From: Alphaproteobacteria bacterium CG_4_10_14_0_8_um_filter_37_21
GTDB taxonomy: Bacteria; Pseudomonadota; Alphaproteobacteria; Paracaedibacterales; UBA11393
NCBI GenBank assembly: GCA_002791835.1
Contig: PFNE01000002.1
Coordinates: 30,456-94,455, forward strand
Length of the DNA: 64,000 nt
Reading direction: 5' to 3'
This document shows positions 698 to 25,915 of this stretch, one piece after another. Both the position numbers and the translations under genes were made by a program. Numbering within the stretch: the stretch's first letter is position 1; each line of letters opens with the position of its first letter. The notes below the pieces were generated by a model. That model was not told the DNA's origin and ran no database searches. It saw nothing but the letters and a program-made list of their open reading frames with translations.

Positions 698-1450
698 ATG
701 CCAGAAATTGTTAAAAACTCTCAATTTTCTGTAAAACGTCTCAGCAGCGTGATTGTTGCTGCACAAGATGTTTTAACACAAAAACTAAATGTGATTGCCA
801 ATGCTCTTTCCAATACAGGAACCACTGGGTTTAAGTGTTCTTTTTTAAGAACTAAAGAAACAGAACATGCAAGCCCTGATGGCACAAAAGTATCTTACCC
901 ACAAGTTGCCGGCACAATGTATGACTTTTCTCAAGGCGGCACCAAAACAACAGGTGAACAAACACATGTTGCCTTAATGGGAAAAGGGTTTTTCAAGGTG
1001 CAGACACAAGCAGGCACAAAATATTCACGAAATGGTGAATTTTCAATAAACGCTAAAAATGAACTTATTGACAGTGTTGGAAATTTGATTTTATCAGATA
1101 AAAATTCACCGATTGTTTTTCCAGAAAATGCTGGGACGATATCAATTGATAATAAAGGTGTTGTCAGTGTGAATGGCGAAAAAGTCGACAAATTGGGCAT
1201 AATAAATTTTAAAAATGAGAAACTTTTAAAAGCTTACGGCAATAGTTTTTTTGACACAGAGCAAGCAGAAACACCCTCAGATGCTCTTGTATCTCAAGGC
1301 GTTTTAGAACTTTCTAATGTTTCATCTATGCAAGAACTTGTGAATATGATGGAAGTTGAACAACGTTTTATGAATTTACAAAAATCATTAGATGAATATG
1401 ACAAAAGTATAAAAAGAACAATCAGTGCCGATAAAGGCACTTCAGCTTAA
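698..1450 (+). CDS. flgF: Flagellar basal-body rod protein FlgF
   Basis: 250 aa. N-terminal rod motif (VIANALSNTGTTGFK) and a C-terminal SNV..ELVNMMEVEQRF motif typical of Flg rod proteins. First gene of an F-G-A-H block. Confidence 0.75.
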   Translation: MPEIVKNSQFSVKRLSSVIVAAQDVLTQKLNVIANALSNTGTTGFKCSFLRTKETEHASPDGTKVSYPQVAGTMYDFSQGGTKTTGEQTHVALMGKGFFKVQTQAGTKYSRNGEFSINAKNELIDSVGNLILSDKNSPIVFPENAGTISIDNKGVVSVNGEKVDKLGIINFKNEKLLKAYGNSFFDTEQAETPSDALVSQGVLELSNVSSMQELVNMMEVEQRFMNLQKSLDEYDKSIKRTISADKGTSA

Positions 1451-1466
1451 TTAAAGGAACCAATTC

Positions 1467-2258
1467 ATGTTAAATAGCGCACTACAGGTTGCCGTTTCAG
1501 GGTTAAAAGCAGCAGAAGGTCGTTTACATACATCGGCATCTAACTTAGCGAACTTAAATTCGGTTGCAGGTAAAAAAACACACCTACTTGTAACGGATCG
1601 ATCTTACAGAAACTTAGTAACACCTGGTTCTAGTACATCAGAATCGGGCACCATTAATCCAACTGGCTATCAACTTGGTACAGGTGTTCAAATTATTGGA
1701 AACTACCAATCATTTTCACAAGGCACACGTATTGATACAGGACGCGCTCTTGATATTTTTATAGATGGCGATGGTTTTTTGCCCATAACTTTACCGAGTG
1801 GGGACACCGCTTATACGCGTGTTGGCAATTTACAAGTCAATAATAACGGAGAACTTGTGATGCCCGGAACAGGTTATATCGTGCAACCAGGTATTACGTT
1901 TCCAGCAGATACGATTGATATAGATATAAGCGCAACGGGTGAAGTATCCGTCACAACAACAGGTGGTACGCAATCATCAATTGGGCAACTACAACTTGCA
2001 ACCTTCTTAAATCCATCGGGACTTAAATATAATGGCAGCGGTATGTATCAAAATTCAGGTGCATCAGGAGAAGCCGTTTTAGCGAATCCAGGCAGTGGAA
2101 AACATGGCGGTTTAATTCAAAAATCACATGAAGGGTCTAATATACAAGCTGTTGATGAAATGGTTGAACTTGTGCAAATTGAAAAAGATTATAATGCGAT
2201 CACGAAAGTACTGAAAACAGGGGAAAAAATGTGGGAGGCTAGCAATGCAATTGTTTAA
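1467..2258 (+). CDS. flgG: Flagellar distal rod protein FlgG
   Basis: 263 aa. N-terminal rod motif (ASNLANLNS), C-terminal GSNIQAVDEMVELVQIEKDYNAITKV motif, and FlgG-like size. Confidence 0.75.
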   Translation: MLNSALQVAVSGLKAAEGRLHTSASNLANLNSVAGKKTHLLVTDRSYRNLVTPGSSTSESGTINPTGYQLGTGVQIIGNYQSFSQGTRIDTGRALDIFIDGDGFLPITLPSGDTAYTRVGNLQVNNNGELVMPGTGYIVQPGITFPADTIDIDISATGEVSVTTTGGTQSSIGQLQLATFLNPSGLKYNGSGMYQNSGASGEAVLANPGSGKHGGLIQKSHEGSNIQAVDEMVELVQIEKDYNAITKVLKTGEKMWEASNAIV

Positions 2259-2961
2259 ATATTTACTTTGTTTGCTTTTATTAGTGCAACCTGTTGTGTC
2301 AAATTTTAAAGAAGAGCAGGGCGCTGACAAAGGCAGTGTACATGCTGAAGTGCTATCGCTTTTAAATGCTGAAATTTCACAAAAAGTTAATGTTACAGAT
2401 TTTGGTATAAAACTAGATAACTGGACATCATCTTGGGAATCTGACAAAGTTCAATGTTTAAAGTTGAAGGATTTGAAAATTAGCCATAATCAAACACGCT
2501 TTGCTGCACAAATTGATGGTTTTAAAACAACAAAAAGGTTGTTTGGAAAAGTTGAATGGTATATAGACGTACCTGTTTTAAACAGAATGCTTCGCCCAGG
2601 TGAAGAAATTCAGGCAGATGATATCATCCTTCAAAAAATTGAATCACATAAAATAAATGCCTTTCATCTAACAGATGCAGGTCAACTTATAGGCATGATT
2701 GGCCGCCACAGTGTTCTAAAACCTGGTGTACTCTTAACAAAAAGCGACGTTCAGGCGCCAATGGTCGTTAAACGGGGTGCTGTTATGCGGGTTACGCTAA
2801 AAAAGGGTTCTTTAACTGTTAGTAACAAAGGTATTGCCTTAAAAGATGCGGCACGTGATGCAACGATTCCAATAGAAATGATGAACAACAATGGTAAAAA
2901 AGATAAAAAGACAGTATATGCTGTCGTATTATCATCAGAAAACGCAGAAATAAGGTTATGA
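2245..2961 (+). CDS. flgA: Flagellar P-ring assembly chaperone FlgA-like
   Basis: 238 aa with a signal peptide (LLCLLLLVQPVVS). The C-terminal region is FlgA/SAF-like (KRGAVMRVTLKKGSLTVSNKGIALKDA). It overlaps the flgG stop and sits between flgG and flgH, as does Caulobacter flaD. Confidence 0.6.
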   Translation: MQLFKYLLCLLLLVQPVVSNFKEEQGADKGSVHAEVLSLLNAEISQKVNVTDFGIKLDNWTSSWESDKVQCLKLKDLKISHNQTRFAAQIDGFKTTKRLFGKVEWYIDVPVLNRMLRPGEEIQADDIILQKIESHKINAFHLTDAGQLIGMIGRHSVLKPGVLLTKSDVQAPMVVKRGAVMRVTLKKGSLTVSNKGIALKDAARDATIPIEMMNNNGKKDKKTVYAVVLSSENAEIRL

Positions 2962-2965
2962 AATT

Positions 2966-3724
2966 ATGAATATTCATAAAATTAAAACACACATCTTATT
3001 GCTAAGCACATGCTGTCTACTAAGTGGATGTATGGCTGAAAAAATGTCAGAAATTGGCGATGGACCAAAGATAAGTCAAATTCAAAATCCAACTATGGCA
3101 CATGGTTATGCACCGGTAAGCATGCCAATGCCAGCACCATCACAGCCTGAACACCATATTAATTCATTATGGCAAATTGGTTCAAAAGCATTTTTTAAAG
3201 ACCAACGTGCAGGCAAAATTGGAGATATTGTAACCGTTGCTGTGCTGATTGATAACAAGGAATCCACAAGCTTTACGCCTTCAATGTCTAAAGAAACAAA
3301 GACTGATGCAAGCCTTGGTAATTTTTTAGGATTACAGAGCCAGGTAAAACGCATTTTACCGCATAAATTTTCTGATAATTTACCAACAAAGTGGCTTGAT
3401 TCAACCTCAAAACCATCGCATTCAGGAAGTGGCAAATATAATCTTGAAGACAAAATGAAATTCAAAATTTCTGCAACCATTATACAAATTATGCCAAACG
3501 GTAATCTGGTCATACAGGGACACACTGAATTTAAGCTTATGAATGAAGTTAGAGAAGTTGAATTACGCGGTATTATTCGTCGTTCAGATATTCAGTCGAA
3601 TAATTCAATTTCAAGTGATAAAATTGCAGAGCTTCGCATTGTTTATGCAGGACGGGGCGATATTACGGATGTTGCCAATAAGCCTTGGGGTGTTCAGGCA
3701 GTTGAAAAAATAATGCCATTTTAA
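2966..3724 (+). CDS. flgH: Flagellar L-ring lipoprotein FlgH
   Basis: 252 aa with lipobox LLSGC. FlgH core motifs present: SLW...FFKDQRAGKIGDIVTV and GNLVIQG...EVREVELRGIIR. Confidence 0.85.
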   Translation: MNIHKIKTHILLLSTCCLLSGCMAEKMSEIGDGPKISQIQNPTMAHGYAPVSMPMPAPSQPEHHINSLWQIGSKAFFKDQRAGKIGDIVTVAVLIDNKESTSFTPSMSKETKTDASLGNFLGLQSQVKRILPHKFSDNLPTKWLDSTSKPSHSGSGKYNLEDKMKFKISATIIQIMPNGNLVIQGHTEFKLMNEVREVELRGIIRRSDIQSNNSISSDKIAELRIVYAGRGDITDVANKPWGVQAVEKIMPF

Positions 3725-6774: not shown

Positions 6775-7833
6775 CTATGCAGCAACTTCCCGACAAACAA
6801 TATCAACAAAACATGGTTTTTCTAAGGGTTTACCGACTGTTACCCATGAATTATGACCTAAAGAAAATTTTCTATTCAGGCGAAATGGCTTAATATTATA
6901 ACTTTGCACTTTAAACCTGAACTTAATGTTATAGTCTATCCCAACATAAAAAAGCGTTAAATCACGCAATACTTTATAATAAATACCCGTTACAGTATCA
7001 TCATCATTCTTAATTTTTGTTGGCATAAACTGGCTGATTTGTTTCCAGTTCATTGGCCCCATGTCAATGCGAATACCTGCAGATTGGTTCCATACTTTAT
7101 CACCAAGTATGACCTCTGTTCCAAGGGCGTTCATACGCCCTGTACGTTGTCCCAATTTTGTCAGTTCAGAATCTGGTGCACGTTCCCAGGCCCCTTGATA
7201 TTGATGTACCTCAACAGGCATATTAAAATGTGTTGATAACACTTTAACCAAACCATGTGCTGATCTTGGGCGCCGCCATAAAGCATCATGGTAACTTAAA
7301 ATTGTACGATCACTAACATGTACTTTATTACGAAAAGATTCGTTACCCATTCCACAAATACTTAACAAGCATTTTCCAATATGTGTTTGCGTTGGGTCTT
7401 TTTGTGAATATGAAATGAATGTCCGTTTTTTTAAACGATGCCAAATAGAAGCATAACGATGGTTGAATATATCTAGAAAGTCACGAAATCCGTTATCATG
7501 CTGACTGCTGCGCTCCATCAATAATTCTGTATATGGGGTTGGTAAAGGCCCTTGAACACCCGCTATACCCATAAAATTAATCCAAAGAACTGGCTGGGTT
7601 TGATTGGCACCTGGCAATGAAAAACTATGAATTTCAGAACTTGATGGCGACAAAGACACACGTGATTTTATGCATACAGCCTCTTTAGAGGGTGCTATTC
7701 CTTCGCCTAATGGCACGGCATTAGGGGTCATTTGCTGTAATAATTCTACCGCCTGATGAAAATCAAACTGAAAGGTATCTGATTTTAACGTGTCGTTTAT
7801 AGTGAAATTTGTGTTCCTGGCAAGGGCTTCCAT
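6775..7833 (-). CDS. tssG: Type VI secretion baseplate subunit TssG (ImpH/VasB family)
   Basis: 352 aa. The N-terminal F.FDFHQAVELLQ motif and the length fit TssG. It overlaps the tssF 3' end by 37 nt, so the start may be internal. Confidence 0.8.
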   Translation of the reverse strand: MEALARNTNFTINDTLKSDTFQFDFHQAVELLQQMTPNAVPLGEGIAPSKEAVCIKSRVSLSPSSSEIHSFSLPGANQTQPVLWINFMGIAGVQGPLPTPYTELLMERSSQHDNGFRDFLDIFNHRYASIWHRLKKRTFISYSQKDPTQTHIGKCLLSICGMGNESFRNKVHVSDRTILSYHDALWRRPRSAHGLVKVLSTHFNMPVEVHQYQGAWERAPDSELTKLGQRTGRMNALGTEVILGDKVWNQSAGIRIDMGPMNWKQISQFMPTKIKNDDDTVTGIYYKVLRDLTLFYVGIDYNIKFRFKVQSYNIKPFRLNRKFSLGHNSWVTVGKPLEKPCFVDIVCREVAA

Positions 7834-9623
7834 CGCATTATATCCTTTTGACGGTGATCATTTTTTAGTACGACTTCTACGAAAGAATTAATTCCCACGT
7901 GTAAGCCAAAATAGTGGCGCAAAATACAAGCAAGTAAGAACGTTGATCCTCCTGCATTGGTCGCATCATTCATAATTAACGTTACTTCTTGACCGCGAAC
8001 AAAACCACGCCATGCTTCATTATTAACGCGTCTTACAACAGGTTTAACTGAAATGTCTGTAATTGTTTCAATTTCAAAGTGTGACTGTTTTGATCCGCGC
8101 AAATAAAGACGAAGCATTTCGGCAAGCCCTGCAACTGATGCTGGGCCTGAAGTTAAGCCAATATGGTTAACAGAAAGTTGTGAAATTAATTTCCATAAAG
8201 TTTCCCCATCTTCTGGTGAATCTACTTGTGACACAGGTTTGTTTAAACAAACAATTTGTGACACAGGCAAAGCATCTTCTGCCGTTAAGGCGGCATTATA
8301 AGGAAGCTGTTCTGCAAGGTAACGGTTCGTACATAGGGTGTCAGCGTAAATAATTTGCTGGGCTGGTGTTTGCGCTGAAAAATTAATATCGACAAACGAT
8401 AAGTATACGTCACTGCCTGGCAAATCCCTAGCACTTGCGGAAGTACGTTTATGCGTCCAGTATACGGTATCCGGATTCAACATCGTATGATGACTAAAAC
8501 TATAATACGGTGACATTTCAATAGGATCAGCCTCGCCTTCAACTGAGCCTGAAATATTTAAAATAGAATATATTTCCGTCGTTTGATCTAAACGTTGATC
8601 GGGAATCAACCTATACTCTGTTTGTTTTTTATTAAGGCGAAAAGGATCCGTTGATTTTTTAAATAAGTTGACAATTGGCGTTGCCCCCAGTAAAAAATCT
8701 TCTTTTTTTAACTCAATTTCATGGATTGCACCTGGATCATTTATTGGAATATAAAGGTCTAATGTTTCAGATGCTAAATCAACAAGATCAAATGCTTTAA
8801 GTAAATCTTTTATTCTAAAAAAAAGAAATTTTTCGGGAAGATGAAAATATTCCTGAAGCAACTGATAGCTATGAATAGAATGCTCTCCCATGGGAAGAGA
8901 CATTTCATCGGCATCAAAACCAATTGGCTTTAAACTGCCCGCTGGAAGGGCGTGTATATTCTTACCATTGGTGCTAACAAAAGCTTGCTGTTCTGTTCTT
9001 GAAAAAATTAATTGATATAAAAGCAACGCGAGTTTTTTGTCTGCAGCTAAGTGAAAATCCACACTATCCATATGCATGTCTTTAAAATCAACACTGGTAG
9101 ATTTTAACTTTATATGTATAGCCCAATCAGATTGCAAAGGCTGGCCGCAAGCTGATAGTCTATTTGCAGCAACAACAGCAACATGATCAACCTCAATAGG
9201 CCAAAGTGTCACAGGGTAAACAGTTGTAAACGTGCAATCAATCCCCTCCATTGCAGAGGCGTTTAACCTAGTGCCCTTAGGTACTTTAAAGCCTGTTGTT
9301 AAATTTCCACGACTGGGTTCTGCTTGCAAATGTGCAATACCCATTGACGGTACGGGATTGACCAAGTGGGGATATAAAATATTGAGAAGCGCTGACGCTG
9401 TCTGAGGGTGCTGGTCTTCTATTTCTTTTGATATACGGCCACTTAAAAATGCAAAAGATTCAAGTAATCTTTCCACATGTGGATCTGGTGACTCGCTATC
9501 TGAAAGTTCAAGTCTTCTGGCAATTTTTGGATATTGACGCGAAAAATTACGACCTGCATTACGTAAATAATCTAATTCACGATTATAATAATATAAAAGT
9601 TGTTCACGTGATGAATTTGCCAA
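7797..9623 (-). CDS. tssF: Type VI secretion baseplate subunit TssF (ImpG/VasA family)
   Basis: 608 aa. The N-terminus LLYYYNRELDYLRNAGRNFSRQYPKIARRL...PDPHVERLLESFAFLSGRI...LYPHLVNPVPSM is the hallmark TssF signature. Confidence 0.9.
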   Translation of the reverse strand: MANSSREQLLYYYNRELDYLRNAGRNFSRQYPKIARRLELSDSESPDPHVERLLESFAFLSGRISKEIEDQHPQTASALLNILYPHLVNPVPSMGIAHLQAEPSRGNLTTGFKVPKGTRLNASAMEGIDCTFTTVYPVTLWPIEVDHVAVVAANRLSACGQPLQSDWAIHIKLKSTSVDFKDMHMDSVDFHLAADKKLALLLYQLIFSRTEQQAFVSTNGKNIHALPAGSLKPIGFDADEMSLPMGEHSIHSYQLLQEYFHLPEKFLFFRIKDLLKAFDLVDLASETLDLYIPINDPGAIHEIELKKEDFLLGATPIVNLFKKSTDPFRLNKKQTEYRLIPDQRLDQTTEIYSILNISGSVEGEADPIEMSPYYSFSHHTMLNPDTVYWTHKRTSASARDLPGSDVYLSFVDINFSAQTPAQQIIYADTLCTNRYLAEQLPYNAALTAEDALPVSQIVCLNKPVSQVDSPEDGETLWKLISQLSVNHIGLTSGPASVAGLAEMLRLYLRGSKQSHFEIETITDISVKPVVRRVNNEAWRGFVRGQEVTLIMNDATNAGGSTFLLACILRHYFGLHVGINSFVEVVLKNDHRQKDIMRWKPLPGTQISL

Positions 9624-16317: not shown

Positions 16318-16854
16318 TTAAAGTTGATCAATAATGGCTGCCATATTTTCATCTTTTTGTCGACTCCCCTTAGATGATCCAAATTCAAAAGAATATGCAT
16401 CTTTCAAACAAGCACCAAAAATACCAGATATTGTTGAAATTATTGCAACAGCCTCACCGGGTAGGCCTTCTTTTGAAAACAAACATAAAGAACACAAACA
16501 AGTACCTAAACCTAAAACAGCGCTCAAAACCATAATATCTGCCCGGCGATTCGTTCTACCCGTTACAGCAAGTAGCTGAGCGTCACGCTTTCTTGCCTCT
16601 TGCCTATCGTGAATTAAAGACAGTTCAACTTCGGTTTCCATAGCACATAATTCTTTTTGAAATGAACATGCTTTATCTGGGTTATCCCTTAAATGAGAAA
16701 TAATTCCCTGAATATCATCCATTCCTGTTAGTTTTTTAGCTATATCTGTCACACGTGATGCAATTGTCTCTGTTCGATCTCCGCCGAACCATTTCCCAAG
16801 CATGGGTGCAAATTCTACTAACCCCAGGGCAGCTAATGATAATGGAAAAGTCAT
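16318..16854 (-). CDS. Putative holin (3-TM, GTA-release-holin-like)
   Basis: 178 aa. An amphipathic N-terminus, a charged central helix, and 2 clear C-terminal TM segments (IMVLSAVLGLGTCLCSLCLF, AVAIISTISGIFGACL). The tail FEFGSSKGSRQKD resembles the FGSSxGSxxK ending I recall for this holin family. It lies directly downstream of the lysin. Confidence 0.5.
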   Translation of the reverse strand: MTFPLSLAALGLVEFAPMLGKWFGGDRTETIASRVTDIAKKLTGMDDIQGIISHLRDNPDKACSFQKELCAMETEVELSLIHDRQEARKRDAQLLAVTGRTNRRADIMVLSAVLGLGTCLCSLCLFSKEGLPGEAVAIISTISGIFGACLKDAYSFEFGSSKGSRQKDENMAAIIDQL

Positions 16855-16863
16855 AGTAAACTC

Positions 16864-17286
16864 CTATAATTTATAAAATATATGATTGCCAATTTGACAA
16901 GTTGGCCGTTTTTTCACCGTCCACGATGGGAATAATTTTCGGTGATGATAATGATTAGCACCATGCGTAACATCTGCAACCGCATCACCACACACTAAAA
17001 ATTGATCCGCAATTTTTAAACACACATCAAAAACACGACATGTAATGTTTGGTGCTAATAAAATAGCCAAATTTGGATCACCCTTATTCCAGCAAGAAAA
17101 TTGCCAACTTTTAAGGCACACTTCCTTAATAGTTCGTCCATACCAGCTTTGTGCTTTGAATCTGTTGATAATTGTATTGGCAACAGCCTTCAAAGAAGCA
17201 TCGCCAAATTTAGCGACTTCCCCCCTGGCCTCTCCGTATAAAGTGCGGGCAAAAACTTCTTTTTCACTTAAGTTATTAATCGTCAT
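16864..17286 (-). CDS. Cell-wall hydrolase, SleB/Hydrolase_2 family (endolysin)
   Basis: Motifs ARTLYGEARGE, QFSCWN, THGANHYH, PSW and IGNHIFY match SleB-type hydrolases. The likely start is the ATG at 17286 (MTINNLSEKE), which overlaps the upstream ORF stop as ATGACGATTAA. The track ORF extends to 17328. Confidence 0.75.
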   Translation of the reverse strand: MTINNLSEKEVFARTLYGEARGEVAKFGDASLKAVANTIINRFKAQSWYGRTIKEVCLKSWQFSCWNKGDPNLAILLAPNITCRVFDVCLKIADQFLVCGDAVADVTHGANHYHHRKLFPSWTVKKRPTCQIGNHIFYKL

Positions 17287-17773
17287 TTTCAATCTCCCGA
17301 CAGTGAATATGAATAAATCCTGTGGCAATATCTTTGATGAAAAAAGATGAATATTTTTTCATGAAATTATTTTTATTATCAACAAAAAAAGAAAACCCTC
17401 CATTCATTAATTCAACTCCTAGTTGTTTTCCACTTTGACTATTGGAAAGCTTTATGACAGGATTTCCATCAATAAAATCAACAGAAAAATTCCGTTGCCC
17501 CACTTGACACGTACTTTTATCCATGCTATAAGTAGCACCGTAACTCCATAGTGATTGTTCCCCAGCTTTTTGTTGGGGCAATCTTTTTTCCCCAACTTTT
17601 ACAATACCTTTCCTTAAAACATCATAGTTCTTCTCTATTAAAATTTCTGGAATAGCACAATTTCTGACCCAATCTTGGGATTTACCTTCCTCAACAATAA
17701 TATGTTCATAAACAATTTTAATTTTAGACATACACCGCGGTAAATTTAAGGCATCTCGCTTATATAAAGGCAA
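17276..17773 (-). CDS. Hypothetical protein (ORFan), translationally coupled to the lysin gene
   Basis: 165-aa track ORF with a TTG start. The first ATG, at 17731, gives MSKIKIVYEH. No recognisable motif. Its frame is open from 17812 and overlaps the upstream 89-aa ORF in the -1 register. Confidence 0.5.
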   Translation of the reverse strand: MPLYKRDALNLPRCMSKIKIVYEHIIVEEGKSQDWVRNCAIPEILIEKNYDVLRKGIVKVGEKRLPQQKAGEQSLWSYGATYSMDKSTCQVGQRNFSVDFIDGNPVIKLSNSQSGKQLGVELMNGGFSFFVDNKNNFMKKYSSFFIKDIATGFIHIHCREIENDD

Positions 17774-18015
17774 TAAAGTGCCCCCCTTGCATCTACCAAC
17801 ACATCTGGATTCTCATAATATGTTGGCTGAACCCGCGCTTGTATAATAATAATTGGTGGCAAGTCAGAATCATTGTCCGCCATATTAAAATCAAAATCAT
17901 CAGGTGGCCTTAAAGCGTAAGATACATTGTCATCAATATCGCCAGCATCACTTTCAAAAATTTGACCTGCAGATTCCTTTAAAAAAACTTTATTTAATCG
18001 ATTGCGCCAATACAT
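17746..18015 (-). CDS. Hypothetical acidic protein (ORFan)
   Basis: 89 aa with an Asp-rich centre (DAGDIDDN...PPDDFDFNMADNDSD). It begins about 25 nt after a terminator-like hairpin. Its 3' end overlaps the next ORF across a G6 run. Confidence 0.45.
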   Translation of the reverse strand: MYWRNRLNKVFLKESAGQIFESDAGDIDDNVSYALRPPDDFDFNMADNDSDLPPIIIIQARVQPTYYENPDVLVDARGALYCLYISEMP

Positions 18016-18042: not shown

Positions 18043-18071
18043 AAAAAAACCGTTCCAAATTCATGAAGCGG
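18043..18071 (-). terminator. Rho-independent terminator-like hairpin inside the phage-derived locus
   Basis: In the minus sense, CCG(C)TTC-atgaatttg-GAACGG followed by TTTTTTT. It lies about 200 nt downstream of the 372-aa ORF and just upstream of the 89-aa ORF. Confidence 0.5.
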
Positions 18072-18275: not shown

Positions 18276-19394
18276 TCAATTCTTAACAATTTCATAATTA
18301 CGGGAAAAAATTTGCTTATTTGTGAGGTCATGTAAGTCTAAATATATTTCAGTTAAATTTTCTTTCAACACATTAACTAAATCTGTTTTAGACGCAAACT
18401 CTCTATTTTGCATGCTTTTTCCTTGTTGGCAGGCAGCATTTCTAACTGAAACACATTTTATTAAATGTTCAGGCTCTATGTGGGTTGTATTCGGTACACC
18501 TGGATCCTGTTTTTCTTCTTTGTTTTTTGCAACCCCCTGAACACTATGTTGCAAACTATTTCTAATATTTTCCAAATTTACAGTCTCTTTTGAAAAATTT
18601 ATCCATAAAGTTGTTTTCGCATGTTCACAATCACAAAAACTTTTCAACCTAGATATTCTACCCTTAATAACCTCTGTTGTACTTTTTGTAAAAGTAACAG
18701 TATCGCCAATTGTATATTTAAGGCTACAAACAAATGGAACGTCCACTTTTAATAGATACGCCTGTCTAGACTGAAACCCCGCATAAATACTTTGCTCTAC
18801 AGCCTGCTGTATGGCTAAATACCCAGTTTTAGTATCAAGAAATGTATCACTTCCGTCAAAAATCACATCTTTTTTAACTTTAAAATCAAATACTTTACAT
18901 GCTTCAGTGCTGTCGGCCTGGAGTAGTGGAACATAATGATCACTTTGCCAACGTAAAAGTATCTCTATTTTTTCTTTCCGCTTATAGGCGCACGACCACT
19001 GAACCCAAAAATGCCCTTTATACTCTTGAACAGGTAAAAAAAATTTTCTGCCCTGAATATTTACAGGAATAGTGTCATTTTTTGTTGTTGAACACCGCAC
19101 CAATTTAGAAGACAAAACCGTATACCCTGTTTTGCGTGCCATTTTTTTGCCCAGTGTTTGCCCAATACTTGGAAAAGAAGCCTTTAATGCATCGCCCGTC
19201 AGACTCAATACACGCCTGTCAGGAAATGCATTTTTAATATAAGGAAATAAATTAATAGCCCCCTGTCCCTTTTGTACCCACATGGCACGTACCACAATTT
19301 TTATTCTATGTAACGGCGCGCGTATTTGCTCAATTGCTGCAGTGTCCATTAAAACGTAGGGTGTTATATCCTTACCCACATCATGGGGCAGCAT
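18276..19394 (-). CDS. Hypothetical protein (372-aa ORFan in phage-derived locus)
   Basis: Long intact ORF 31 nt downstream of the 110-aa ORF. The sequence looks beta-rich. No P-loop, no coiled-coil tape-measure character and no portal motifs are recognisable. Confidence 0.55.
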   Translation of the reverse strand: MLPHDVGKDITPYVLMDTAAIEQIRAPLHRIKIVVRAMWVQKGQGAINLFPYIKNAFPDRRVLSLTGDALKASFPSIGQTLGKKMARKTGYTVLSSKLVRCSTTKNDTIPVNIQGRKFFLPVQEYKGHFWVQWSCAYKRKEKIEILLRWQSDHYVPLLQADSTEACKVFDFKVKKDVIFDGSDTFLDTKTGYLAIQQAVEQSIYAGFQSRQAYLLKVDVPFVCSLKYTIGDTVTFTKSTTEVIKGRISRLKSFCDCEHAKTTLWINFSKETVNLENIRNSLQHSVQGVAKNKEEKQDPGVPNTTHIEPEHLIKCVSVRNAACQQGKSMQNREFASKTDLVNVLKENLTEIYLDLHDLTNKQIFSRNYEIVKN

Positions 19395-19425
19395 AGATAT
19401 ATTTTTACAGTCATGAGAGATAGGG

Positions 19426-19758
19426 TCAACAAAAGGTAACTGCCATTTTTTTTAATTCTATATATTCTAACAACGATTGTTCATGCAGAACCCCGTATTG
19501 TTTATTTAACGCACGCCCAATATACATAAGCTTCATGCAACCAGGCTCTACGTATTCAACGCCACCTAAAAGATGACCTTTAAAAAATACAGTGTTATTA
19601 CAAAGCAGTGTTATAGAACTGGATGTCAGATTTTTCGTTTCACACAACAGCTCAATTTGTGTAAATTCTCCCTCTTGTGTTTTTAGTGTCAGTTTTAATA
19701 TTTTCACTTCCTCTGCAGCGCTCTCCCCCGTTTGTTCAAGTAAGCCTCGTAAATTCAT
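19426..19758 (-). CDS. Hypothetical protein (110-aa ORFan)
   Basis: Intact ORF, first gene of the 110/372-aa pair, transcribed divergently from eamA. No recognisable motif. Confidence 0.45.
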   Translation of the reverse strand: MNLRGLLEQTGESAAEEVKILKLTLKTQEGEFTQIELLCETKNLTSSSITLLCNNTVFFKGHLLGGVEYVEPGCMKLMYIGRALNKQYGVLHEQSLLEYIELKKMAVTFC

Positions 19759-19847
19759 AATTTTCTCGCTTTCATATCCTGGATTTGGTACTATCTAGTG
19801 ATTATATAAGTATTGACAATAAAACGAATCAAGCTGGGTATACATAA

Positions 19848-20801
19848 ATGACAGATACAACAACGACACAACAAGATTCTGTACTGCTGGATAGAATGTA
19901 TACGTTTCTACAAAAAAATCCTTTGTTTAAGTGGTTTTTTAAACCTGGTTATTTACAAGGCGTATTTTGGGCGAACATGATATCCGTTGTTGCCATATCA
20001 AATGATGTTGCTATGCGCTTTCTTGGTGAACGTTTAGATGTTATTGAAATTTCATTTTTTAGGTTTTTCTTTTCAATGATCGTGTTGTTACCCTTTATGC
20101 TTGGCCAAGGCAAAGCACTTTTTCAAACAAAAGTACCTGGTATGCACGCAGCACGTGGTATTGTTGGTGCTGTTGCCATTGCCTTATGCTGCTGGTCTGT
20201 GAATGTTATGCCACTTGCACAAAGCACCAGTCTTATGTTCATGCAACCGCTATTTTTCCTACCTTTAGCTTTTTTCTTTTTAAAAGAACACGTATCAAAA
20301 GAACGCTGGATTGCAACGCTCGTAGGTTTTGCAGGACTTTTGTTTATTATACGCCCTGGAACAAGTGAATTTCATGTTTATAGCTTCATTCCATTAAGTG
20401 CAGCATTTCTGTTTGCAACACTTGATGTTTTAGCAAAAAAAATGGTTGCCAATGAAAAAACGCTAACGCTTTTATTTTATTTTGGCTTCGTAACAAGCTT
20501 AATATCACTACCCTTTGTATTTTCAGTATGGCAAATGCCAACACAATCAGAATTTTGTTATTTAATACTACTTGGTATTGGTGGAAACTTAATACAGGTA
20601 TGCTTGTTCTTAGCTTTTTCAGCCACAGAAGCATCTGCTCTAGCGCCTTTTAGATATGGCGAATTTATTGTTGCAGGATTATTTGGTTACTTATTTTTCT
20701 CTCAAGTACCAACAACGACACTACTGATTGGGTCAAGTATTATTATTGCATCAGCTTTTTATCTATCTCATAAAGAAATTCAAATGGCAAAACAGAAGTA
20801 G
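19848..20801 (+). CDS. EamA/DMT-family transporter
   Basis: 317 aa with about 10 predicted TM helices and the two-EamA-repeat architecture typical of drug/metabolite transporters. Confidence 0.75.
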   Translation: MTDTTTTQQDSVLLDRMYTFLQKNPLFKWFFKPGYLQGVFWANMISVVAISNDVAMRFLGERLDVIEISFFRFFFSMIVLLPFMLGQGKALFQTKVPGMHAARGIVGAVAIALCCWSVNVMPLAQSTSLMFMQPLFFLPLAFFFLKEHVSKERWIATLVGFAGLLFIIRPGTSEFHVYSFIPLSAAFLFATLDVLAKKMVANEKTLTLLFYFGFVTSLISLPFVFSVWQMPTQSEFCYLILLGIGGNLIQVCLFLAFSATEASALAPFRYGEFIVAGLFGYLFFSQVPTTTLLIGSSIIIASAFYLSHKEIQMAKQK

Positions 20802-20945: not shown

Positions 20946-21455
20946 TTAAATTTCATTTAAATGAAGGGTCCACTCATTTTCCATGGACCATTCTTTTGTT
21001 TTTAATGAAAAATCAGTTATACGCATGTCTAAATAAGGGCGATACGTTACAAAAAAATCCCGATCACGACTTAGTCGTATAGATTTATCAATTGTTATTT
21101 TCCTGCCCAATTGTGAGAAAGGCAGATTATTTTGATCACTATCTATAACGGCAACAGATCCAGATACATCCTGTCTACTTATTGTATGAATACCGTTTTC
21201 TATCTTCTCCCAAAGGCGTTGAATACAACCAACTCGCACCACAGATCCTGGGCTGAAATTATCAACCGCTAAAACACTTTTATCTTTTGCCTCAATTATT
21301 GTTTTGTATTTTAACGCCTTTGGCCCAAGATGCAGCAGCTCACCATTTACTGTACGTGCCATTTGTCCTAATTGAATTGGTTTTAAAGTCTGTACGCAAC
21401 CACGTGCAGAAAAAGGAGGCAACCCCCCTGTGCTAAATGTTAAAACTGTTTCCAC
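20946..21455 (-). CDS. Hypothetical protein at the tail-tube position of the head-neck module
   Basis: 169 aa. GTG start preceded by a strong SD (GAGGGGG). It follows the DUF3168-like gene in the same orientation. I see no similarity to TP901-1/lambda-V type tube proteins. Confidence 0.5.
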   Translation of the reverse strand: METVLTFSTGGLPPFSARGCVQTLKPIQLGQMARTVNGELLHLGPKALKYKTIIEAKDKSVLAVDNFSPGSVVRVGCIQRLWEKIENGIHTISRQDVSGSVAVIDSDQNNLPFSQLGRKITIDKSIRLSRDRDFFVTYRPYLDMRITDFSLKTKEWSMENEWTLHLNEI

Positions 21456-21465
21456 TAAATCCCCC

Positions 21466-21579
21466 TCAATACCAAAAAGGTAAAGGCGCTATTAATAGCG
21501 TTTCCCTCTGTGTTAAATATTGATCAAAAAAAAGGGCTAGATCATCTGGATCTAACCCTTGTATTATATTATTTTTCAT
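21466..21579 (-). CDS. Possible 37-aa micro-ORF
   Basis: Own translation: MKNNIIQGLDPDDLALFFDQYLTQRETLLIAPLPFWY. Its TGA stop overlaps the SD of the 169-aa ORF, which suggests coupling. It is below the ORF-track size cutoff. Confidence 0.3.
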   Translation of the reverse strand: MKNNIIQGLDPDDLALFFDQYLTQRETLLIAPLPFWY

Positions 21580-21661: not shown

Positions 21662-22066
21662 TTATCCACGAACAAGAACTTCATAATAGTCTTCAACCAA
21701 ACGTGGTGTATTTTGTTTAGGTAAATCTATCACACTATTTGACAAGCGAATTGTTGCACGCATACCGTCTTTTACAATAATTGTTTTACCATCCATTAAT
21801 TTCTTAATATCATCAGCAGTATTAAGATTTTTATTATTGGTAGGGGTGTTACTAATAACGGATGTTTTTATTTTTAATCGTGCATGCCCACAATCAGTCC
21901 CTAATTTTAAGGAAGTCCAAATTTCTTCTAGCTCTAATAAAACTGCAGGTGGTTCAGTTTCAGGTGGGTATGCAAGATGAATTTTTTCTTTTAAGCCGTG
22001 CCTAATAATACTTTCATCTTCTGTTAATAAAGTCCTTATTGCGGACAAGACGCCGTAATCAGCCAT
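21662..22066 (-). CDS. DUF3168-like protein (tail-terminator / g8 position)
   Basis: Likely start is the ATG at 22066 (MADYGVLSAIRTLL...) with a GGAGA SD 7 nt upstream. The track start at 22126 would overlap the adaptor gene. At about 134 aa, its size, position and N-terminal pattern fit DUF3168/gpU-position proteins. Confidence 0.45.
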   Translation of the reverse strand: MADYGVLSAIRTLLTEDESIIRHGLKEKIHLAYPPETEPPAVLLELEEIWTSLKLGTDCGHARLKIKTSVISNTPTNNKNLNTADDIKKLMDGKTIIVKDGMRATIRLSNSVIDLPKQNTPRLVEDYYEVLVRG

Positions 22067-22085: not shown

Positions 22086-22451
22086 CTAACATTCAAACCC
22101 CAGGGTTTCGACCCATTTTCCATCAAACGATGGGGTGAATGGGGCGGCTAGTTTTATCAATTTACTATTAAACCTTAGCCCGAATAGAGTTGCTTGTAAA
22201 GCATCTCTGTTATAATAATTTCGCATAGCTATTTTGTACCACTTCTTGGGGAACGATTTGTCTAGTAAATTCCACTCATCCAAGCTCGCAGATTGTGCAA
22301 TTTTTCGCCCCATCATATTTACAGGCTTTATCCTTGCCCAATATGAATTTCCAGGTATTTTCTTTTCTGAAAATTCACCATTTTTATCCTCTTTTATTTT
22401 CCTAAAAATCAACTGAATTCGTGTGCGCATTTCGCCAATTTTATCGCTCAT
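22086..22451 (-). CDS. Phage head-tail adaptor / head-closure protein (SPP1 gp16 / Phage_H_T_join-like)
   Basis: 121 aa. The pattern MRTRIQL...YWARIKPVN...WYKIAMRNYY matches the LR.RI...WA.I.P...Y.I.IRY signature. ATGA overlap with the connector gene. Confidence 0.6.
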   Translation of the reverse strand: MSDKIGEMRTRIQLIFRKIKEDKNGEFSEKKIPGNSYWARIKPVNMMGRKIAQSASLDEWNLLDKSFPKKWYKIAMRNYYNRDALQATLFGLRFNSKLIKLAAPFTPSFDGKWVETLGFEC

Positions 22452-22999
22452 AAAATATCCTTTACGCGGTAAGGCTCGAGTAAATCGTTATAAAAATTTG
22501 ATTTTTTTATGGGTTCTCCGCCCCTATTTTCATATAATTCAGCAACAATTTGTAAAAGTGCATGCTTAATGGGTGCTGGAATATGTTTTGGATATATACC
22601 AAAACCAGCCTGATAAACAACTTCAACAAGTTGATCAGATGTTACTAACGTTAAAAGTGGACTATTATCCGTATCTACCAACTGGTAGCGTCGCACTGCG
22701 TAACGTGCAGATCCACTTCTTATATTTGTTACAGAATGTACGTGCAAAATATTTGGTCTGGGTAATTTTATTTCTGAAAAACCACCTTTTACGGCTTTAG
22801 GCTCACTTGTAAAAGAAAGTTTTTGTGTTAATAATGCCCTATTTAAATAACGTTCTATATATTCCGTTGCCGTTTCAATCAAATGCAACAAATATTGATC
22901 TTCCTCAGCGTGCTCTAATCGTAAATGCACCTTAACATCTTCCAATGTCACAGGATAAATTTCTGCTTTTTCAAGAATTTTTAACATGAATAACTCCAT
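22448..22999 (-). CDS. Phage gp6-like head-tail connector protein
   Basis: 183 aa. The N-terminus VTLEDVKVHLRLEHAEEDQYLLHLIETATEYIERYLNRALLTQ is the classic gp6-like (Phage_connect_1) motif. Confidence 0.7.
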   Translation of the reverse strand: MELFMLKILEKAEIYPVTLEDVKVHLRLEHAEEDQYLLHLIETATEYIERYLNRALLTQKLSFTSEPKAVKGGFSEIKLPRPNILHVHSVTNIRSGSARYAVRRYQLVDTDNSPLLTLVTSDQLVEVVYQAGFGIYPKHIPAPIKHALLQIVAELYENRGGEPIKKSNFYNDLLEPYRVKDIL

Positions 23000-23050: not shown

Positions 23051-24142
23051 TTATTCTGAAAATTGAAGAACTTTAATTGCATTACAATCAACCACAGCGC
23101 CACCAACACGCTTTGTTGCATAGAATTCAACAAACGGTTTTGCACTATAGGGGTCGCGAAGTAAACTCACTTCACGGCGGTCAACAATTTGGTACCCCAG
23201 CTTAAAGTTTCCAAATAGTATTGGCGTTGATACCTCGCCAGATCGCACTTGATCCAGGGCATCGTTTAATACGACTGGAAAGCCTAACAATGTGTGTGAC
23301 ATACCATCACTTAATGATGGTTGTAGCAAATAACGGCGCGATTCGTCTTTTAATCCGCGAAGCATAGATAATGCTGATCGTGACATCATCCAACAAGCAC
23401 CCGGTAAAAAGTCACATCTCAGTGCATCAACAACTGCCAATAAGGCATCTGCATTTTTAATAGATCCATTGACTCCAGTTTTAATCATTTGCAAATGATC
23501 ATCTGATACTTCTTCAGATAAGGGGTAAGCAAGAATCCCTTTTGGCTTCTTCTCACCGTCACCTTTAATAAATGCCCTATTTTCTGTCATACTCATGGAT
23601 TCAGAAATTTTACAGCCAATCCATTCTTCTAAATTTACACTTGAATCGTCCAAAATTTTTTGGCTAGCGCGTGGCTTTGCATATAATTCATGAGTATGGA
23701 TCTGAATTTTTTTAAGCTCCGGCAAGTCTGTCTCTTGTCGGTCATCCATCTCAGCTGCCCAACCAACGTTAGCCTCTCCCTTATCCACCAATAATTCATA
23801 GGAATCAGAAGATACTTCTGTAACACTTGCTATCGAACGTAGAGAACTTCCCAATTTTAATTGGCTATGAATATTTTCAACCACAAAATTTGGTACCGTA
23901 TATTCGCCGCCATTGTTTTGTGTTGATAACGCCTTTTGCCCCACCCCTTTTGTTAAAAAAGATCTAAAATCGGCACTTTTTTCCTGTGTTTCAAAACTAT
24001 CTGCGGCACAAGGCATTGTAATGGCTGATCTTGTTGCATACAGTTGGTTCATTTTTCGCTCACTTTCTTGTGTAAATTGTGTAAATGTATTTTCTAAATT
24101 CTTTACAGAATTTTCCATATTTATTAATGTTGTTTCTTCCAT
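23051..24142 (-). CDS. Phage major capsid protein, HK97 family
   Basis: 363 aa. N-terminal coiled-coil delta-like region, then GGEYTVPNFV, LRSIASV, WAAEMDD, ELYAKPRASQKILDDS, TENRAFIKGDGEKKPKGIL and a C-terminal GGAVV. Directly follows the prohead protease. Confidence 0.85.
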   Translation of the reverse strand: MEETTLINMENSVKNLENTFTQFTQESERKMNQLYATRSAITMPCAADSFETQEKSADFRSFLTKGVGQKALSTQNNGGEYTVPNFVVENIHSQLKLGSSLRSIASVTEVSSDSYELLVDKGEANVGWAAEMDDRQETDLPELKKIQIHTHELYAKPRASQKILDDSSVNLEEWIGCKISESMSMTENRAFIKGDGEKKPKGILAYPLSEEVSDDHLQMIKTGVNGSIKNADALLAVVDALRCDFLPGACWMMSRSALSMLRGLKDESRRYLLQPSLSDGMSHTLLGFPVVLNDALDQVRSGEVSTPILFGNFKLGYQIVDRREVSLLRDPYSAKPFVEFYATKRVGGAVVDCNAIKVLQFSE

Positions 24143-24150
24143 AAATTCTC

Positions 24151-24696
24151 CTAATATAAAATTGTTGATGTTGCAACGGTTCTTGCCAAATGCTCCAAAG
24201 TATCTTGTAAATTTTGCAGTCGTTTTTTAATATTGATTAAACTTTTAACGCTCACGACTTTCGCTTTTTCATTAGCAGCAAAAGTTACCAACGAAATTTC
24301 TAACAAGTCTACTTCTGTTAAAAACTTAACCTTTTTACTATCATCAAAATAGCTATTAATAGGGTTATAGCCAATCGAAAGGCCTTCAATAACGCCTGCC
24401 TTTAAAAAAGCATAAGCTTCTTGTGCTTGTGGTACTTCCATTAATAAGCGGCCCTTCACATACAAGCCGTAAGCATCTTCCCTTGCTTCTTCCCATACAC
24501 CAATGGGTTTGTTTTGGTTGTGCTGCCAAAGCATCTTAAGCCCCTGAACAGGCCTTGAAGTTAGACTATTGGCAAAAGCACCTTTTTTAACACTATCTCC
24601 ATGATGATCCAAAAAATTAAAGACACTAGCATACCCCTCAAAAGTTCCATCTTCAGATAGATTTTTAATGCATAGTTTATGTGTTTTCGTTTGCAT
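24151..24696 (-). CDS. HK97-family phage prohead protease
   Basis: 181 aa. FEGYASVFNFLDHHGDSVKKGAF...MLWQHNQNKPIGVWEEAREDAYGLYVKGRL matches the prohead protease family pattern. SD AGGGAGG upstream. Confidence 0.85.
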   Translation of the reverse strand: MQTKTHKLCIKNLSEDGTFEGYASVFNFLDHHGDSVKKGAFANSLTSRPVQGLKMLWQHNQNKPIGVWEEAREDAYGLYVKGRLLMEVPQAQEAYAFLKAGVIEGLSIGYNPINSYFDDSKKVKFLTEVDLLEISLVTFAANEKAKVVSVKSLINIKKRLQNLQDTLEHLARTVATSTILY

Positions 24697-24864: not shown

Positions 24865-25620
24865 TTAGAAGAAGTATGAAACACGTGCGATCACAGATTG
24901 TGATGTATTGCGTACTTTATCTGCATAAGCGTCTAAACCAAATGTTGATTCCCCACCACGCATGTATTCAGCACCAACAGACCAGCGACCCATTTTATAC
25001 ATACATCCAAGACCAGGCGTAAAACTGAAGCTCACGTCACTAAAGTTTTTAGTTTTTCCTGTCCTTTTTGACACAATCTTATGCTTTACATATGATTCGC
25101 GAAAGCCCAACATTAAAAATGGTGTGAAATTACCGTATGCATAACCCAGTTTAGCAAAAGCCAGCGCTGAGACTGGACGAGTTTGTGTATATTCAGCAGC
25201 AAAAGGAAAAGTTTGTGTGTTTCCAGCCTGGTCTATAACAACTTCTTGAGTCAAAGTAGTATCTACTTTTTTTCCACCAAAACCGGCAAAGATATCAAGG
25301 CCCAATCCCCAGACAACACGATTAGAAAGCGTCCAATAGTGTGTAATTCCTAAGCCTAAGCGTTTGTAATTATTCTTATATTTATGATCCAAACCTTCAG
25401 TTTCGTGTGTCAGTTTTGAATCCATCATCATCAAACCACCAGCTAAGGAAACGGCCCAACCTTGTGGTCCAGGTGCTATGGTTTTTGGTGCTGGTGCTGC
25501 AACTGCATCACAATAAATTTCAGATTTTTTTTCTTCTTTTTTCTTCGTTTCTACAGCGTATGATGACGTTGCAGATAAAACTGCAGCAAGTGCCAATACT
25601 GATGATGTATATTTTTTCAT
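24865..25620 (-). CDS. Outer-membrane beta-barrel protein (Omp25/OmpA-TM-like)
   Basis: 251 aa. Signal peptide ending SSYA, alternating amphipathic strands, and a C-terminal ...ARVSYFF with terminal Phe. Confidence 0.7.
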   Translation of the reverse strand: MKKYTSSVLALAAVLSATSSYAVETKKKEEKKSEIYCDAVAAPAPKTIAPGPQGWAVSLAGGLMMMDSKLTHETEGLDHKYKNNYKRLGLGITHYWTLSNRVVWGLGLDIFAGFGGKKVDTTLTQEVVIDQAGNTQTFPFAAEYTQTRPVSALAFAKLGYAYGNFTPFLMLGFRESYVKHKIVSKRTGKTKNFSDVSFSFTPGLGCMYKMGRWSVGAEYMRGGESTFGLDAYADKVRNTSQSVIARVSYFF

Positions 25621-25839: not shown

Positions 25840-25915
25840 GCCCAGATAGCTCAGTTGGTAGAGCAAGGGACTGAAAATCCCTGTGTCGCTGGTTCGATTC
25901 CTGCTCTGGGCACCA
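25840..25915 (+). tRNA. tRNA-Phe (GAA)
   Basis: GCCCAGATAGCTCAGTTGGTAGAGC...CTGAAAA...GGTTCGATTCC...TCTGGGCACCA. The cloverleaf was folded by hand: acceptor GCCCAGA/TCTGGGC, anticodon GAA, encoded CCA. Confidence 0.92.

Follow-up and report, generated by a model that had tools for sequence, protein, structure and literature searches.

Gene transfer agent (GTA) clusters of Holosporaceae have been described as comprising head genes, sometimes together with stopper and terminator genes, with no distal tail or hub detected (George et al. 2022, PMC9254644). The same work considered that the unknown genes downstream of the adaptor are perhaps tail genes that have diverged beyond detection, reported that related symbionts gave transcripts and that no particles were seen, and left the question of whether the clusters of Holosporaceae and Rickettsiales symbionts have truly lost their tails. 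Here, we describe a locus that corresponds to these reduced clusters. It lies in a 64,000-nucleotide stretch of contig PFNE01000002.1 (hereafter the window), from the Alphaproteobacteria bacterium CG_4_10_14_0_8_um_filter_37_21. Our subject is the segment from 18276 to 19758 on the minus strand, which is annotated as two open reading frames (ORFs) of 110 and 372 aa. These ORFs are one gene of about 493 codons, whose reading frame is interrupted at a poly-A run that is one A too long. This gene probably encodes the central tail hub, with a gp27/Mu gp44/gpD/Tal-like fold, of a chromosomally fixed, phage-derived HK97-type particle locus.

Results

Two annotated ORFs are a single gene broken by a frameshift

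The gene and its parts are the following (all on the minus strand).

18276–19758, minus strand: whole gene for the putative tail hub, about 493 codons after removal of one A, with the frameshift inside
19426–19758, minus strand: 110-aa ORF, the 5′ fragment, corresponding to the predicted first β-barrel domain of the hub and stopping nine codons past the A-run
18276–19451, minus strand: 3′ fragment of the gene, in a frame that is open from 19451, inside the A8 run
18276–19394, minus strand: 372-aa ORF, the annotated part of the 3′ fragment, whose start is a conserved internal Met (19394)
19446–19453, minus strand: A8 homopolymer (T8 on the plus strand), the frameshift site, with one surplus A

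The two ORFs are in different frames, and the frame switch occurs at GAATTAAAAAAAATGG. An initial annotation of this DNA placed them between a capsid and a lysis module, and they are indeed found between HK97 head genes and the genes for a hydrolase and a 178-aa membrane protein. That annotation also took them for two intact genes forming a unit, an interpretation that has to be abandoned because the orthologs are single proteins of 493–494 aa and the two frames are separated by a homopolymer frameshift. In a search of 5.8 billion proteins, the exact 372-aa product was found as a hypothetical protein from the "Alphaproteobacteria bacterium CG_4_10_14_0_8_um_filter" metagenome-assembled genome (MAG). 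The same search returned four proteins of 493–494 aa with 56–61% identity, which reach about 120 residues further N-terminally than the 372-aa ORF; for one of these, a Holosporales MAG is given as the source. Since orthologs show 56–70% identity to the window ORFs, these are real coding sequence.

The orthologs also account for what lies between the two ORFs. The 110-aa ORF aligns with their residues 1–103, while the 19 codons preceding the annotated ATG of the 372-aa ORF (19395–19451) encode KKWQLPFVDPISHDCKNIS, which matches KKWELPxVDPVSHxxKxIS in the orthologs. The ATG itself, at 19394, is the conserved Met inside the ortholog motif ISMLP. When one A is deleted, an uninterrupted ORF of 493 codons is obtained. 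Because orthologs span both ORFs, the codons between them are conserved, and deletion of a single A restores the reading frame, the two ORFs are one gene.

At the site of the frameshift, related loci (designated by L numbers) have an in-frame run, which is A6 (AAT/TAT AAA AAA TGG) in L001–L005 and A7 (TTA AAA AAA TGG) in L009, or read AGA AAA TGG, again in frame, as in L015. The A8 of the window is identical in three separate assemblies (L006, L007, and L008), and no intact allele similar to the window copy was retrieved from the collection of 5.8 billion proteins. Together with a G-run frameshift in the adjacent gene, which is described below, this shows that the frameshift is real. The "hypothetical proteins" of 110 and 372 aa, the latter being COY39_00275 in NCBI, should therefore be merged in the annotation as one frameshifted gene for a putative tail hub.

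As for the borders of the gene, the initial annotation assigned to it an upstream intergenic region of its own, which is real (19759–19847) and is the divergent gap to an EamA gene, and a terminator-like hairpin downstream (18043–18071), which did not hold up. The latter is an imperfect stem of 3+4 bp followed by U7, with a minimum free energy of −7.1 kcal/mol and a z of 0.14 versus shuffled sequences, and a terminator scan made no call there. In relatives, the hub gene is invariably followed by the same gene, and the hairpin falls between these two.

A divergent family with a predicted hub fold

Scans of both ORFs, full-length orthologs, and ten distant family members against Pfam, PHROG, and NCBIfam gave no usable match. 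Two weak ones were all that came up, to CBM_5_12 for a phage-like member and to a PHROG whose function is unknown. Likewise, sequence searches of the PDB with profiles A1, A2, and A5 produced chance-level matches only. Relatives were found by an exhaustive hidden Markov model search of 1.84 billion cluster representatives, with the ortholog alignment as query, which defines a family of 157 cluster representatives (E ≤ 0.001), mostly 470–640 aa long. A word-indexed protein search with a broad profile added one protein only, and a profile scan of genome contigs with a narrower alignment found two loci only. Family motifs are distributed along the full length of the proteins: EGE, AEWxQ...G..NL, INTLTP, WPxxGQxLGxSGY, WxYxQKRxE, SFFxTxxG, and PTxIxxxLxDLR.

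AlphaFold run with a 9-sequence alignment gave an unusable model, with a predicted local distance difference test score (pLDDT) of 38. Using a 40-sequence alignment from the exhaustive search, an AlphaFold2 model of the ortholog P0003 was obtained with a pLDDT of 86.3 and a predicted template modeling score of 0.75, in which there are strands within residues 3–80. When this model was compared by Foldseek with the PDB, we found 45 matches with E ≤ 0.001, mostly to hub, Tal, and VgrG proteins, the Foldseek probability being 1.00 in 39 of them and 0.89–0.99 in the other six. They include 7aef_q, Mu gp44 (1wru), 3cdd, 3gs9, T4 gp27 (1k28_D), NF5 Tal (9m7n), and 80alpha (6v8i_AE). In terms of proteins, these matches cover the hubs of AlgoCIS, the Anabaena contractile injection system (CIS), and PVC, the MuSo2 43-kDa tail protein, Listeria gp18, VgrG, and siphophage Tal/hub proteins from NF5, 80alpha, Bxb1, Douge, and T5. 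Matches in BFVD carry names such as "Mu-like prophage tail protein gpP," "Phage protein D," and "43 kDa tail protein." The family is thus predicted to adopt a multidomain hub fold with two tube-like β-barrel domains, and its relationship to hub proteins is, as judged from the model, visible at the level of the fold only.

These findings bear on most of what the initial annotation had said about the function of the two ORFs. It had seen no recognizable motif, in agreement with the profile scans, and had argued that the 372-aa product is not a terminase, a portal, or a tape measure, which is in line with the predicted hub fold. From the position, it had guessed that the ORFs belong to a very reduced tail, as part of its tip, its hub, or its receptor-binding apparatus, and this is supported by the predicted gp27/Mu gp44-type fold and by phage relatives that follow a tape measure and a Dit-position protein. 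Of the checks that it had proposed, structure prediction and Foldseek, run on P0003, returned hub, Tal, and VgrG proteins, and a survey of relatives shows that in Holosporales-type ones the hub gene stays with the capsid genes, as a single gene. The term "ORFan" needs qualification, being apt in that the family is absent from Pfam and PHROGs and overstated in view of the 157 cluster representatives in metagenomes.

Phage relatives and a candidate distal-tail partner

A scan of IMG/VR with a sub-alignment found four loci. In two of them, L012 and L013, the family members are proteins of 650–658 aa that are related to the family over their full length with an hhalign probability of 99.9–100%. 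Both loci have the same gene order, with an ORF of 1174–1197 aa, an ORF of 174–198 aa, and then the hub family member. The long ORF of L013 has matches among the tape-measure PHROGs, and upstream lies the gene for a major tail protein that contains an Ig-like domain. The hub family member in these phage loci therefore occupies the canonical Tal/hub slot. The phage members (L012 9887–11863, L013 9953–11905, and P0047) have an insertion of about 100 aa with a CBM5/12-like motif for carbohydrate binding, which is missing from the Holosporales proteins. In addition, a 124-aa ORF in L020 matches only the N-terminal anchor of fiber-like proteins of these phages (479 aa in L012 and 409 aa in L013).

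The small ORF that precedes the hub in the phages has a counterpart in the window.

20946–21455, minus strand: 169-aa protein, candidate distal-tail (Dit-position) partner of the hub

This protein can be aligned end to end, although weakly, with the ORF between tape measure and hub in L012 and L013, and it matches the 172-aa ORF directly upstream of the L010 hub with an E of 3e-23. Because the 169-aa protein is homologous to the small ORFs preceding the hub in L010, L012, and L013, its gene and the hub gene are likely to represent a conserved pair, Dit-position plus hub, here parted by the EamA gene. Of the two genes that precede the hub in the phages, the window and its orthologous loci have only the Dit-position one, encoding 169 aa in the window, and not the tape measure gene; EamA separates the Dit-position gene from the hub. 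As for L010 (IMG/VR UViG_3300042387_002748, 59% GC), its gene order is portal, adaptor-like protein (211 aa), Dit-like protein (172 aa), hub (653 aa), protease, and capsid. There, the Dit and hub pair comes directly after the adaptor, again with no tube or tape measure gene.

The hub family evolves fast under apparent purifying selection

When the window is compared with L001, protein identity is 96% for a 134-aa protein of the locus, 93% for ClpX, 90% for EamA, and 88% for the 178-aa protein, and it falls to 85% for the capsid, 75% for the 169-aa protein, and 55–56% for the hub. The hub is thus the fastest-evolving protein of the locus, at 55–61% identity versus 85–97% for head and neck proteins. 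At the other extreme, the 134-aa putative tail terminator is 96–97% identical between lineages, more than ClpX or capsid, an unusually strong conservation for a phage-derived neck protein.

The ratio of nonsynonymous to synonymous substitution rates (dN/dS, Nei–Gojobori) is 0.18–0.25 for the hub in every pair, whether or not the repaired window copy is part of it, versus 0.06–0.08 for the capsid, values that are rough and unable to date the frameshift since dS is about 1 and near saturation. Pairs with the window copy give 0.18–0.21, and pairs among intact orthologs 0.19–0.25. The window frameshift is too recent to leave a signal in such rough ratios. Judging from these sequence comparisons, the hub family appears to be under purifying selection yet fast evolving, as expected for a distal tail protein.

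A second frameshift in the neighboring gene

The gene that comes after the hub gene is also broken in the window.

17276–18015, minus strand: gene after the hub, encoding 245–246 aa in relatives, here as ORFs of 89 aa and 165 aa, with a frameshift at a G6 run

As revealed by tblastn with the 246-aa protein of L001, the two frames meet at the G6 run (C6 on the plus strand) at 17781–17786. At least seven assemblies, obtained from different samples and by different pipelines, show this split, while L015 has an intact copy of the gene. The hub gene and the 246-aa gene each carry a single indel and are otherwise fully open and conserved. Runs of A or T of at least 8 are frequent in the window (43 in 64 kb), whereas runs of G or C of at least 6 are rare (9), the GC content being 36%. 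In the phage contigs, no counterpart of the 246-aa protein was detectable; it has relatives in Holosporales.

We also observed that the two neighboring distal-tail genes are each hit once, at a homopolymer, and that every head gene is intact. Splits are more numerous in the closest relative, L009 (a Logan contig, SRR14574973, with about 70% identity in the hub), where they affect capsid (163+181), head closure (40+81), hub (83+404), the 246-aa gene (146+114), and hydrolase (123+50), the hub frameshift being at another site, where a G has been lost. These splits reflect either advanced pseudogenization of the whole locus or a noisy assembly.

A conserved chromosomal locus

The remaining genes of the locus in the window are these.

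24151–24696, minus strand: prohead protease (HK97)
23051–24142, minus strand: HK97 major capsid protein
22448–22999, minus strand: gp6-type adaptor
22086–22451, minus strand: head closure protein (stopper)
21662–22066, minus strand: 134-aa protein, candidate tail terminator (its ortholog has a weak match to Pfam Tail_completion_gp17, E 0.15)
21466–21579, minus strand: conserved 37-aa ORF, MKNNIIQGLDPDDLALFFDQYLTQRETLLIAPLPFWY, between the 134-aa and 169-aa genes
19848–20801, plus strand: EamA-family transporter gene (Pfam EamA), between the 169-aa and hub genes
16864–17286, minus strand: SleB-type cell-wall hydrolase, 140 aa (Pfam Hydrolase_2, E 1e-16; PHROG endolysin)
16318–16854, minus strand: 178-aa membrane protein, holin-like (phrog_1544, E 4e-17)

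In L001–L005, L009, and L015, the order is ftsZ, outer-membrane β-barrel gene, protease, capsid, adaptor, stopper, and genes for proteins of 134 aa, 35–37 aa, and 170 aa, followed by EamA on the opposite strand, hub, the 246-aa gene, hydrolase, the 178-aa gene, and clpX. A conserved 178-aa gene also ends the locus in L001, L009, L015, and L020, and in the window it has clpX next to it. The same core, including the opposite-strand EamA, is found in L011 and in L020, whose hub is only about 25% identical, and in eight metagenome loci in which a portal gene directly precedes the protease gene (contigs up to 311 kb). Taken together, the gene order with EamA is seen in L001–L005, L009, L011, L020, and L022–L034, on contigs of up to 341 kb with housekeeping flanks, and the synteny extends to L015, the flanks being ftsZ, clpX, and other housekeeping genes. 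Such a conserved chromosomal order is characteristic of an ancient element that has become domesticated and is inherited vertically, and not of an active prophage.

The EamA gene is in the same position and orientation in L001–L005, L009, L011, L019, L020, L022–L026, L029, and L032. It keeps this position even where hubs are only about 25% identical, and its identity between the window and L001 (90%) exceeds that of the capsid. The stable presence of a cellular transporter gene within a structural module of phage origin is puzzling. The 37-aa ORF is also present in L001–L004, L009, and L020, and it contains the strongest terminator-like hairpin of the region (21532–21560), which has a 12-bp stem and a T-run after it.

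Directly upstream of the prohead protease gene, there is a gene for an outer-membrane β-barrel-like protein of 251 aa (24865–25620, minus strand), in the slot that is taken by the portal in L011 and L022–L035, perhaps also in L020. At the edge of the locus, between this gene and ftsZ, a tRNA-Phe gene (25840–25915, plus strand) may mark an ancient integration site. An Rfam scan detected three tRNAs only. Two metagenome contigs of 36% GC, L100 and L069, have solitary portal genes amid housekeeping genes (lipB and dnaN; recA) with no protease or capsid gene adjacent, which shows that GTA-like head genes are dispersed in other low-GC genomes, these not being linkable to the window genome. Further away in the window, TssF (608 aa) and TssG (352 aa) are encoded as a pair (6775–9623, minus strand) at a distance of about 9 kb; further type VI secretion core genes are absent from the window. 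In addition, flagellar basal-body genes (FlgF/G-like, FlgA, and FlgH) are found at 698–3724 (plus strand). Given the latter, this Holosporales-like organism may be motile.

Discussion

Our findings outline how the hub might work in lineages in which its gene is intact. By analogy with solved gp27-type hubs, the protein would trimerize, its two tube-like β-barrels per subunit forming a pseudo-hexameric ring that could dock beneath the ring formed by the 169-aa Dit-position protein, thereby closing the tail at its distal end. Since no tube, chaperone, or tape-measure genes are present, the particle would have a short stub tail on its neck. Adaptor, stopper, terminator, Dit, and hub would make up this stub, after which would come the 246-aa protein and the SleB-type hydrolase, which may serve as the tip and in penetrating or lysing the cell wall. 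As encoded in the population represented by the window, only the 110-aa first domain and possibly the 3′ fragment would be made, and full-length hub would be produced only via slippage of RNA polymerase or ribosome on the A8. Most likely, the A8 expansion and the G-run indel are recent, fixed frameshifts, by which the distal tail is beginning to be lost. That the two tail genes furthest from the head were inactivated recently would agree with the published picture of tail loss with head retention.

Several points weigh against the assignment of a tail hub. The curated hub families (Phage_GPD, Prophage_tail/Tal, Phage_BR0599, and VgrG models) showed no sequence match to the proteins. The modeled protein is an ortholog 61% identical to the window protein, not the window protein itself, and its template modeling scores against known structures are moderate, 0.35–0.52 (target-normalized), with a large global root-mean-square deviation, as expected for a multidomain monomer. 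No tube, chaperone, tape-measure, portal, or terminase genes are found in the 64-kb window, which is otherwise housekeeping, making the assembly of a particle or a tail uncertain. The near saturation of dS limits the evidence from selection, and the two adjacent frameshifts suggest that the hub gene may no longer work here.

The frameshifts can be read in other ways. The A8 could be a functional slippage site, at which transcriptional slippage (−1 A or +2 A) or +1 ribosomal frameshifting yields full-length hub in some of the cells or transcripts. The G-run of the next gene could behave likewise, the two tracts acting as a phase-variable or low-level switch of tail completion. We consider this unlikely. 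The breaks are exactly in the A8 and G6 runs, with the new hub frame opening inside the A8, both genes are otherwise open and conserved, and dN/dS for pairs with the window copy is not above that of intact ortholog pairs. Moreover, poly-A slippage reportedly rescues frameshifted genes in AT-rich endosymbionts. However, unlike programmed frameshifts, this one is not conserved, all other lineages being in frame (A6, A7, or AGA AAA), an A8 is at the short end for efficient slippage, and with 43 A/T runs of at least 8 in 64 kb, the chance occurrence of one in the hub gene is unremarkable. That the frameshift is a sequencing or assembly error, the gene being intact in the organism, would be conceivable for a MAG, homopolymers being error-prone on some platforms. 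It is very improbable when the A8 recurs in three separate assemblies, the G-run frameshift in at least seven from different samples and pipelines, and the 5.8-billion-protein search returned no close intact allele.

It is highly improbable, too, that the ORFs form a genuine two-gene unit translated apart, whether as a split hub or as unrelated cargo. Gene callers do annotate two ORFs, and the 110-aa piece would be a compact first β-barrel domain. In every intact relative, however, there is a single gene, the split being limited to one population, and the start of the 372-aa ORF is an internal conserved Met with no evident Shine–Dalgarno sequence upstream and 19 conserved codons in the same frame before it. 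The alternative that we find hardest to credit is a VgrG-like or CIS hub that works with the nearby TssF/TssG and not with the capsid locus. Such hubs are indeed among the Foldseek matches, and TssF/TssG are encoded at 6775–9623. Against this, the hub gene of relatives stays with capsid and hydrolase genes in neighborhoods from which TssF/TssG are absent, and the phage relatives are in siphovirus tail modules. Furthermore, the model has neither a gp5-like OB-fold nor a long C-terminal β-helix, there is no Phage_GPD or VgrG Pfam match, and no sheath or Hcp gene is nearby. A recently frameshifted tail-hub gene of the capsid locus thus remains our preferred explanation.

If this is correct, predicting a hub fold for the largest unknown gene and a Dit position for the 169-aa gene implies that distal-tail genes persist under purifying selection in many lineages, which bears on whether the GTA-like particles of Holosporaceae and Rickettsiales can still deliver DNA or were repurposed. 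The profile of the 157 cluster representatives can be used to find such tail genes. The two homopolymer frameshifts document tail decay, or slippage-dependent expression, in progress. More speculatively, "head-only" Holosporales-type clusters could encode an unrecognized minimal tail with no tube or tape measure, including an embedded conserved EamA and then the 246-aa protein, SleB-type hydrolase, and membrane protein, conserved across hubs only about 20–25% identical, and homopolymers could switch off or slippage-gate this tail in some populations. We put forward this combined scenario as a tentative one, which is rather less likely to be right than wrong.

How does the locus compare with known systems? 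In the reduced GTA clusters of Holosporaceae and Rickettsiales (PMC9254644), which belong to the same taxon group, there is a syntenic chromosomal set of HK97 protease, capsid, and adaptor genes, plus stopper and terminator, and head genes are under stronger purifying selection than tail genes, as is the case here. What the window locus shares with GTAs is a conserved chromosomal set of head and neck genes of the HK97 type, in a locus that is vertically inherited and apparently under purifying selection (dN/dS 0.06–0.25). It differs from the published clusters in that the genes downstream of the adaptor could be assigned by predicted fold and phage synteny, and in that its protease gene is adjoined by an outer-membrane β-barrel gene and not by a portal gene.

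The GTA of Rhodobacter capsulatus (RcGTA) has a similar pair of genes, g12 for the distal tail and g13 for the hub (Bardy et al. 2020, cited from PMC9254644). In both systems, a small Dit-position gene and a hub gene lie downstream of protease, capsid, adaptor, stopper, and terminator genes, the cluster is chromosomal and vertically inherited, and a cell-wall hydrolase gene comes after (an analog of the g14 peptidase). In contrast to RcGTA, the window locus has no equivalents of g9–g11 (tube, chaperones, and tape measure) or of the g15 megatron, its hydrolase is SleB-type and not NlpC/P60, and an EamA gene is inserted. GTA-specific families (DUF2460, DUF2163, Phage_BR0599, and TIGR GTA models) had no match in the window proteins or their orthologs. 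The hub protein is also larger, at 494 aa, RcGTA g13 being about 290 aa. With regard to the frameshift, the closest parallel is provided by poly-A frameshifted genes of endosymbionts, which also show a single-nucleotide poly-A expansion in an otherwise intact, conserved gene of an AT-rich genome (36% GC here); the tract in the window is only 8 A, and rescue is hypothetical here.

Finally, the window family differs from the gp27/Mu gp44/P2 gpD-type hubs, which include the N-terminal hub domains of Tal from 80alpha, NF5, Bxb1, and T5 pb3 as well as VgrG, in having no detectable sequence similarity to them or to their Pfam and PHROG families, and in having an extra C-terminal α/β region of about 100 aa. 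Moreover, its gene is frameshifted in the window, in a locus with no tape measure or tube gene. What the window family has in common with these hubs is the predicted fold, matched over nearly the full length (Foldseek E 1e-7 to 4e-4), and the canonical slot after tape measure and Dit genes in which its phage members are found. The hub described here is thus a sequence-divergent addition to a known kind of tail hub.

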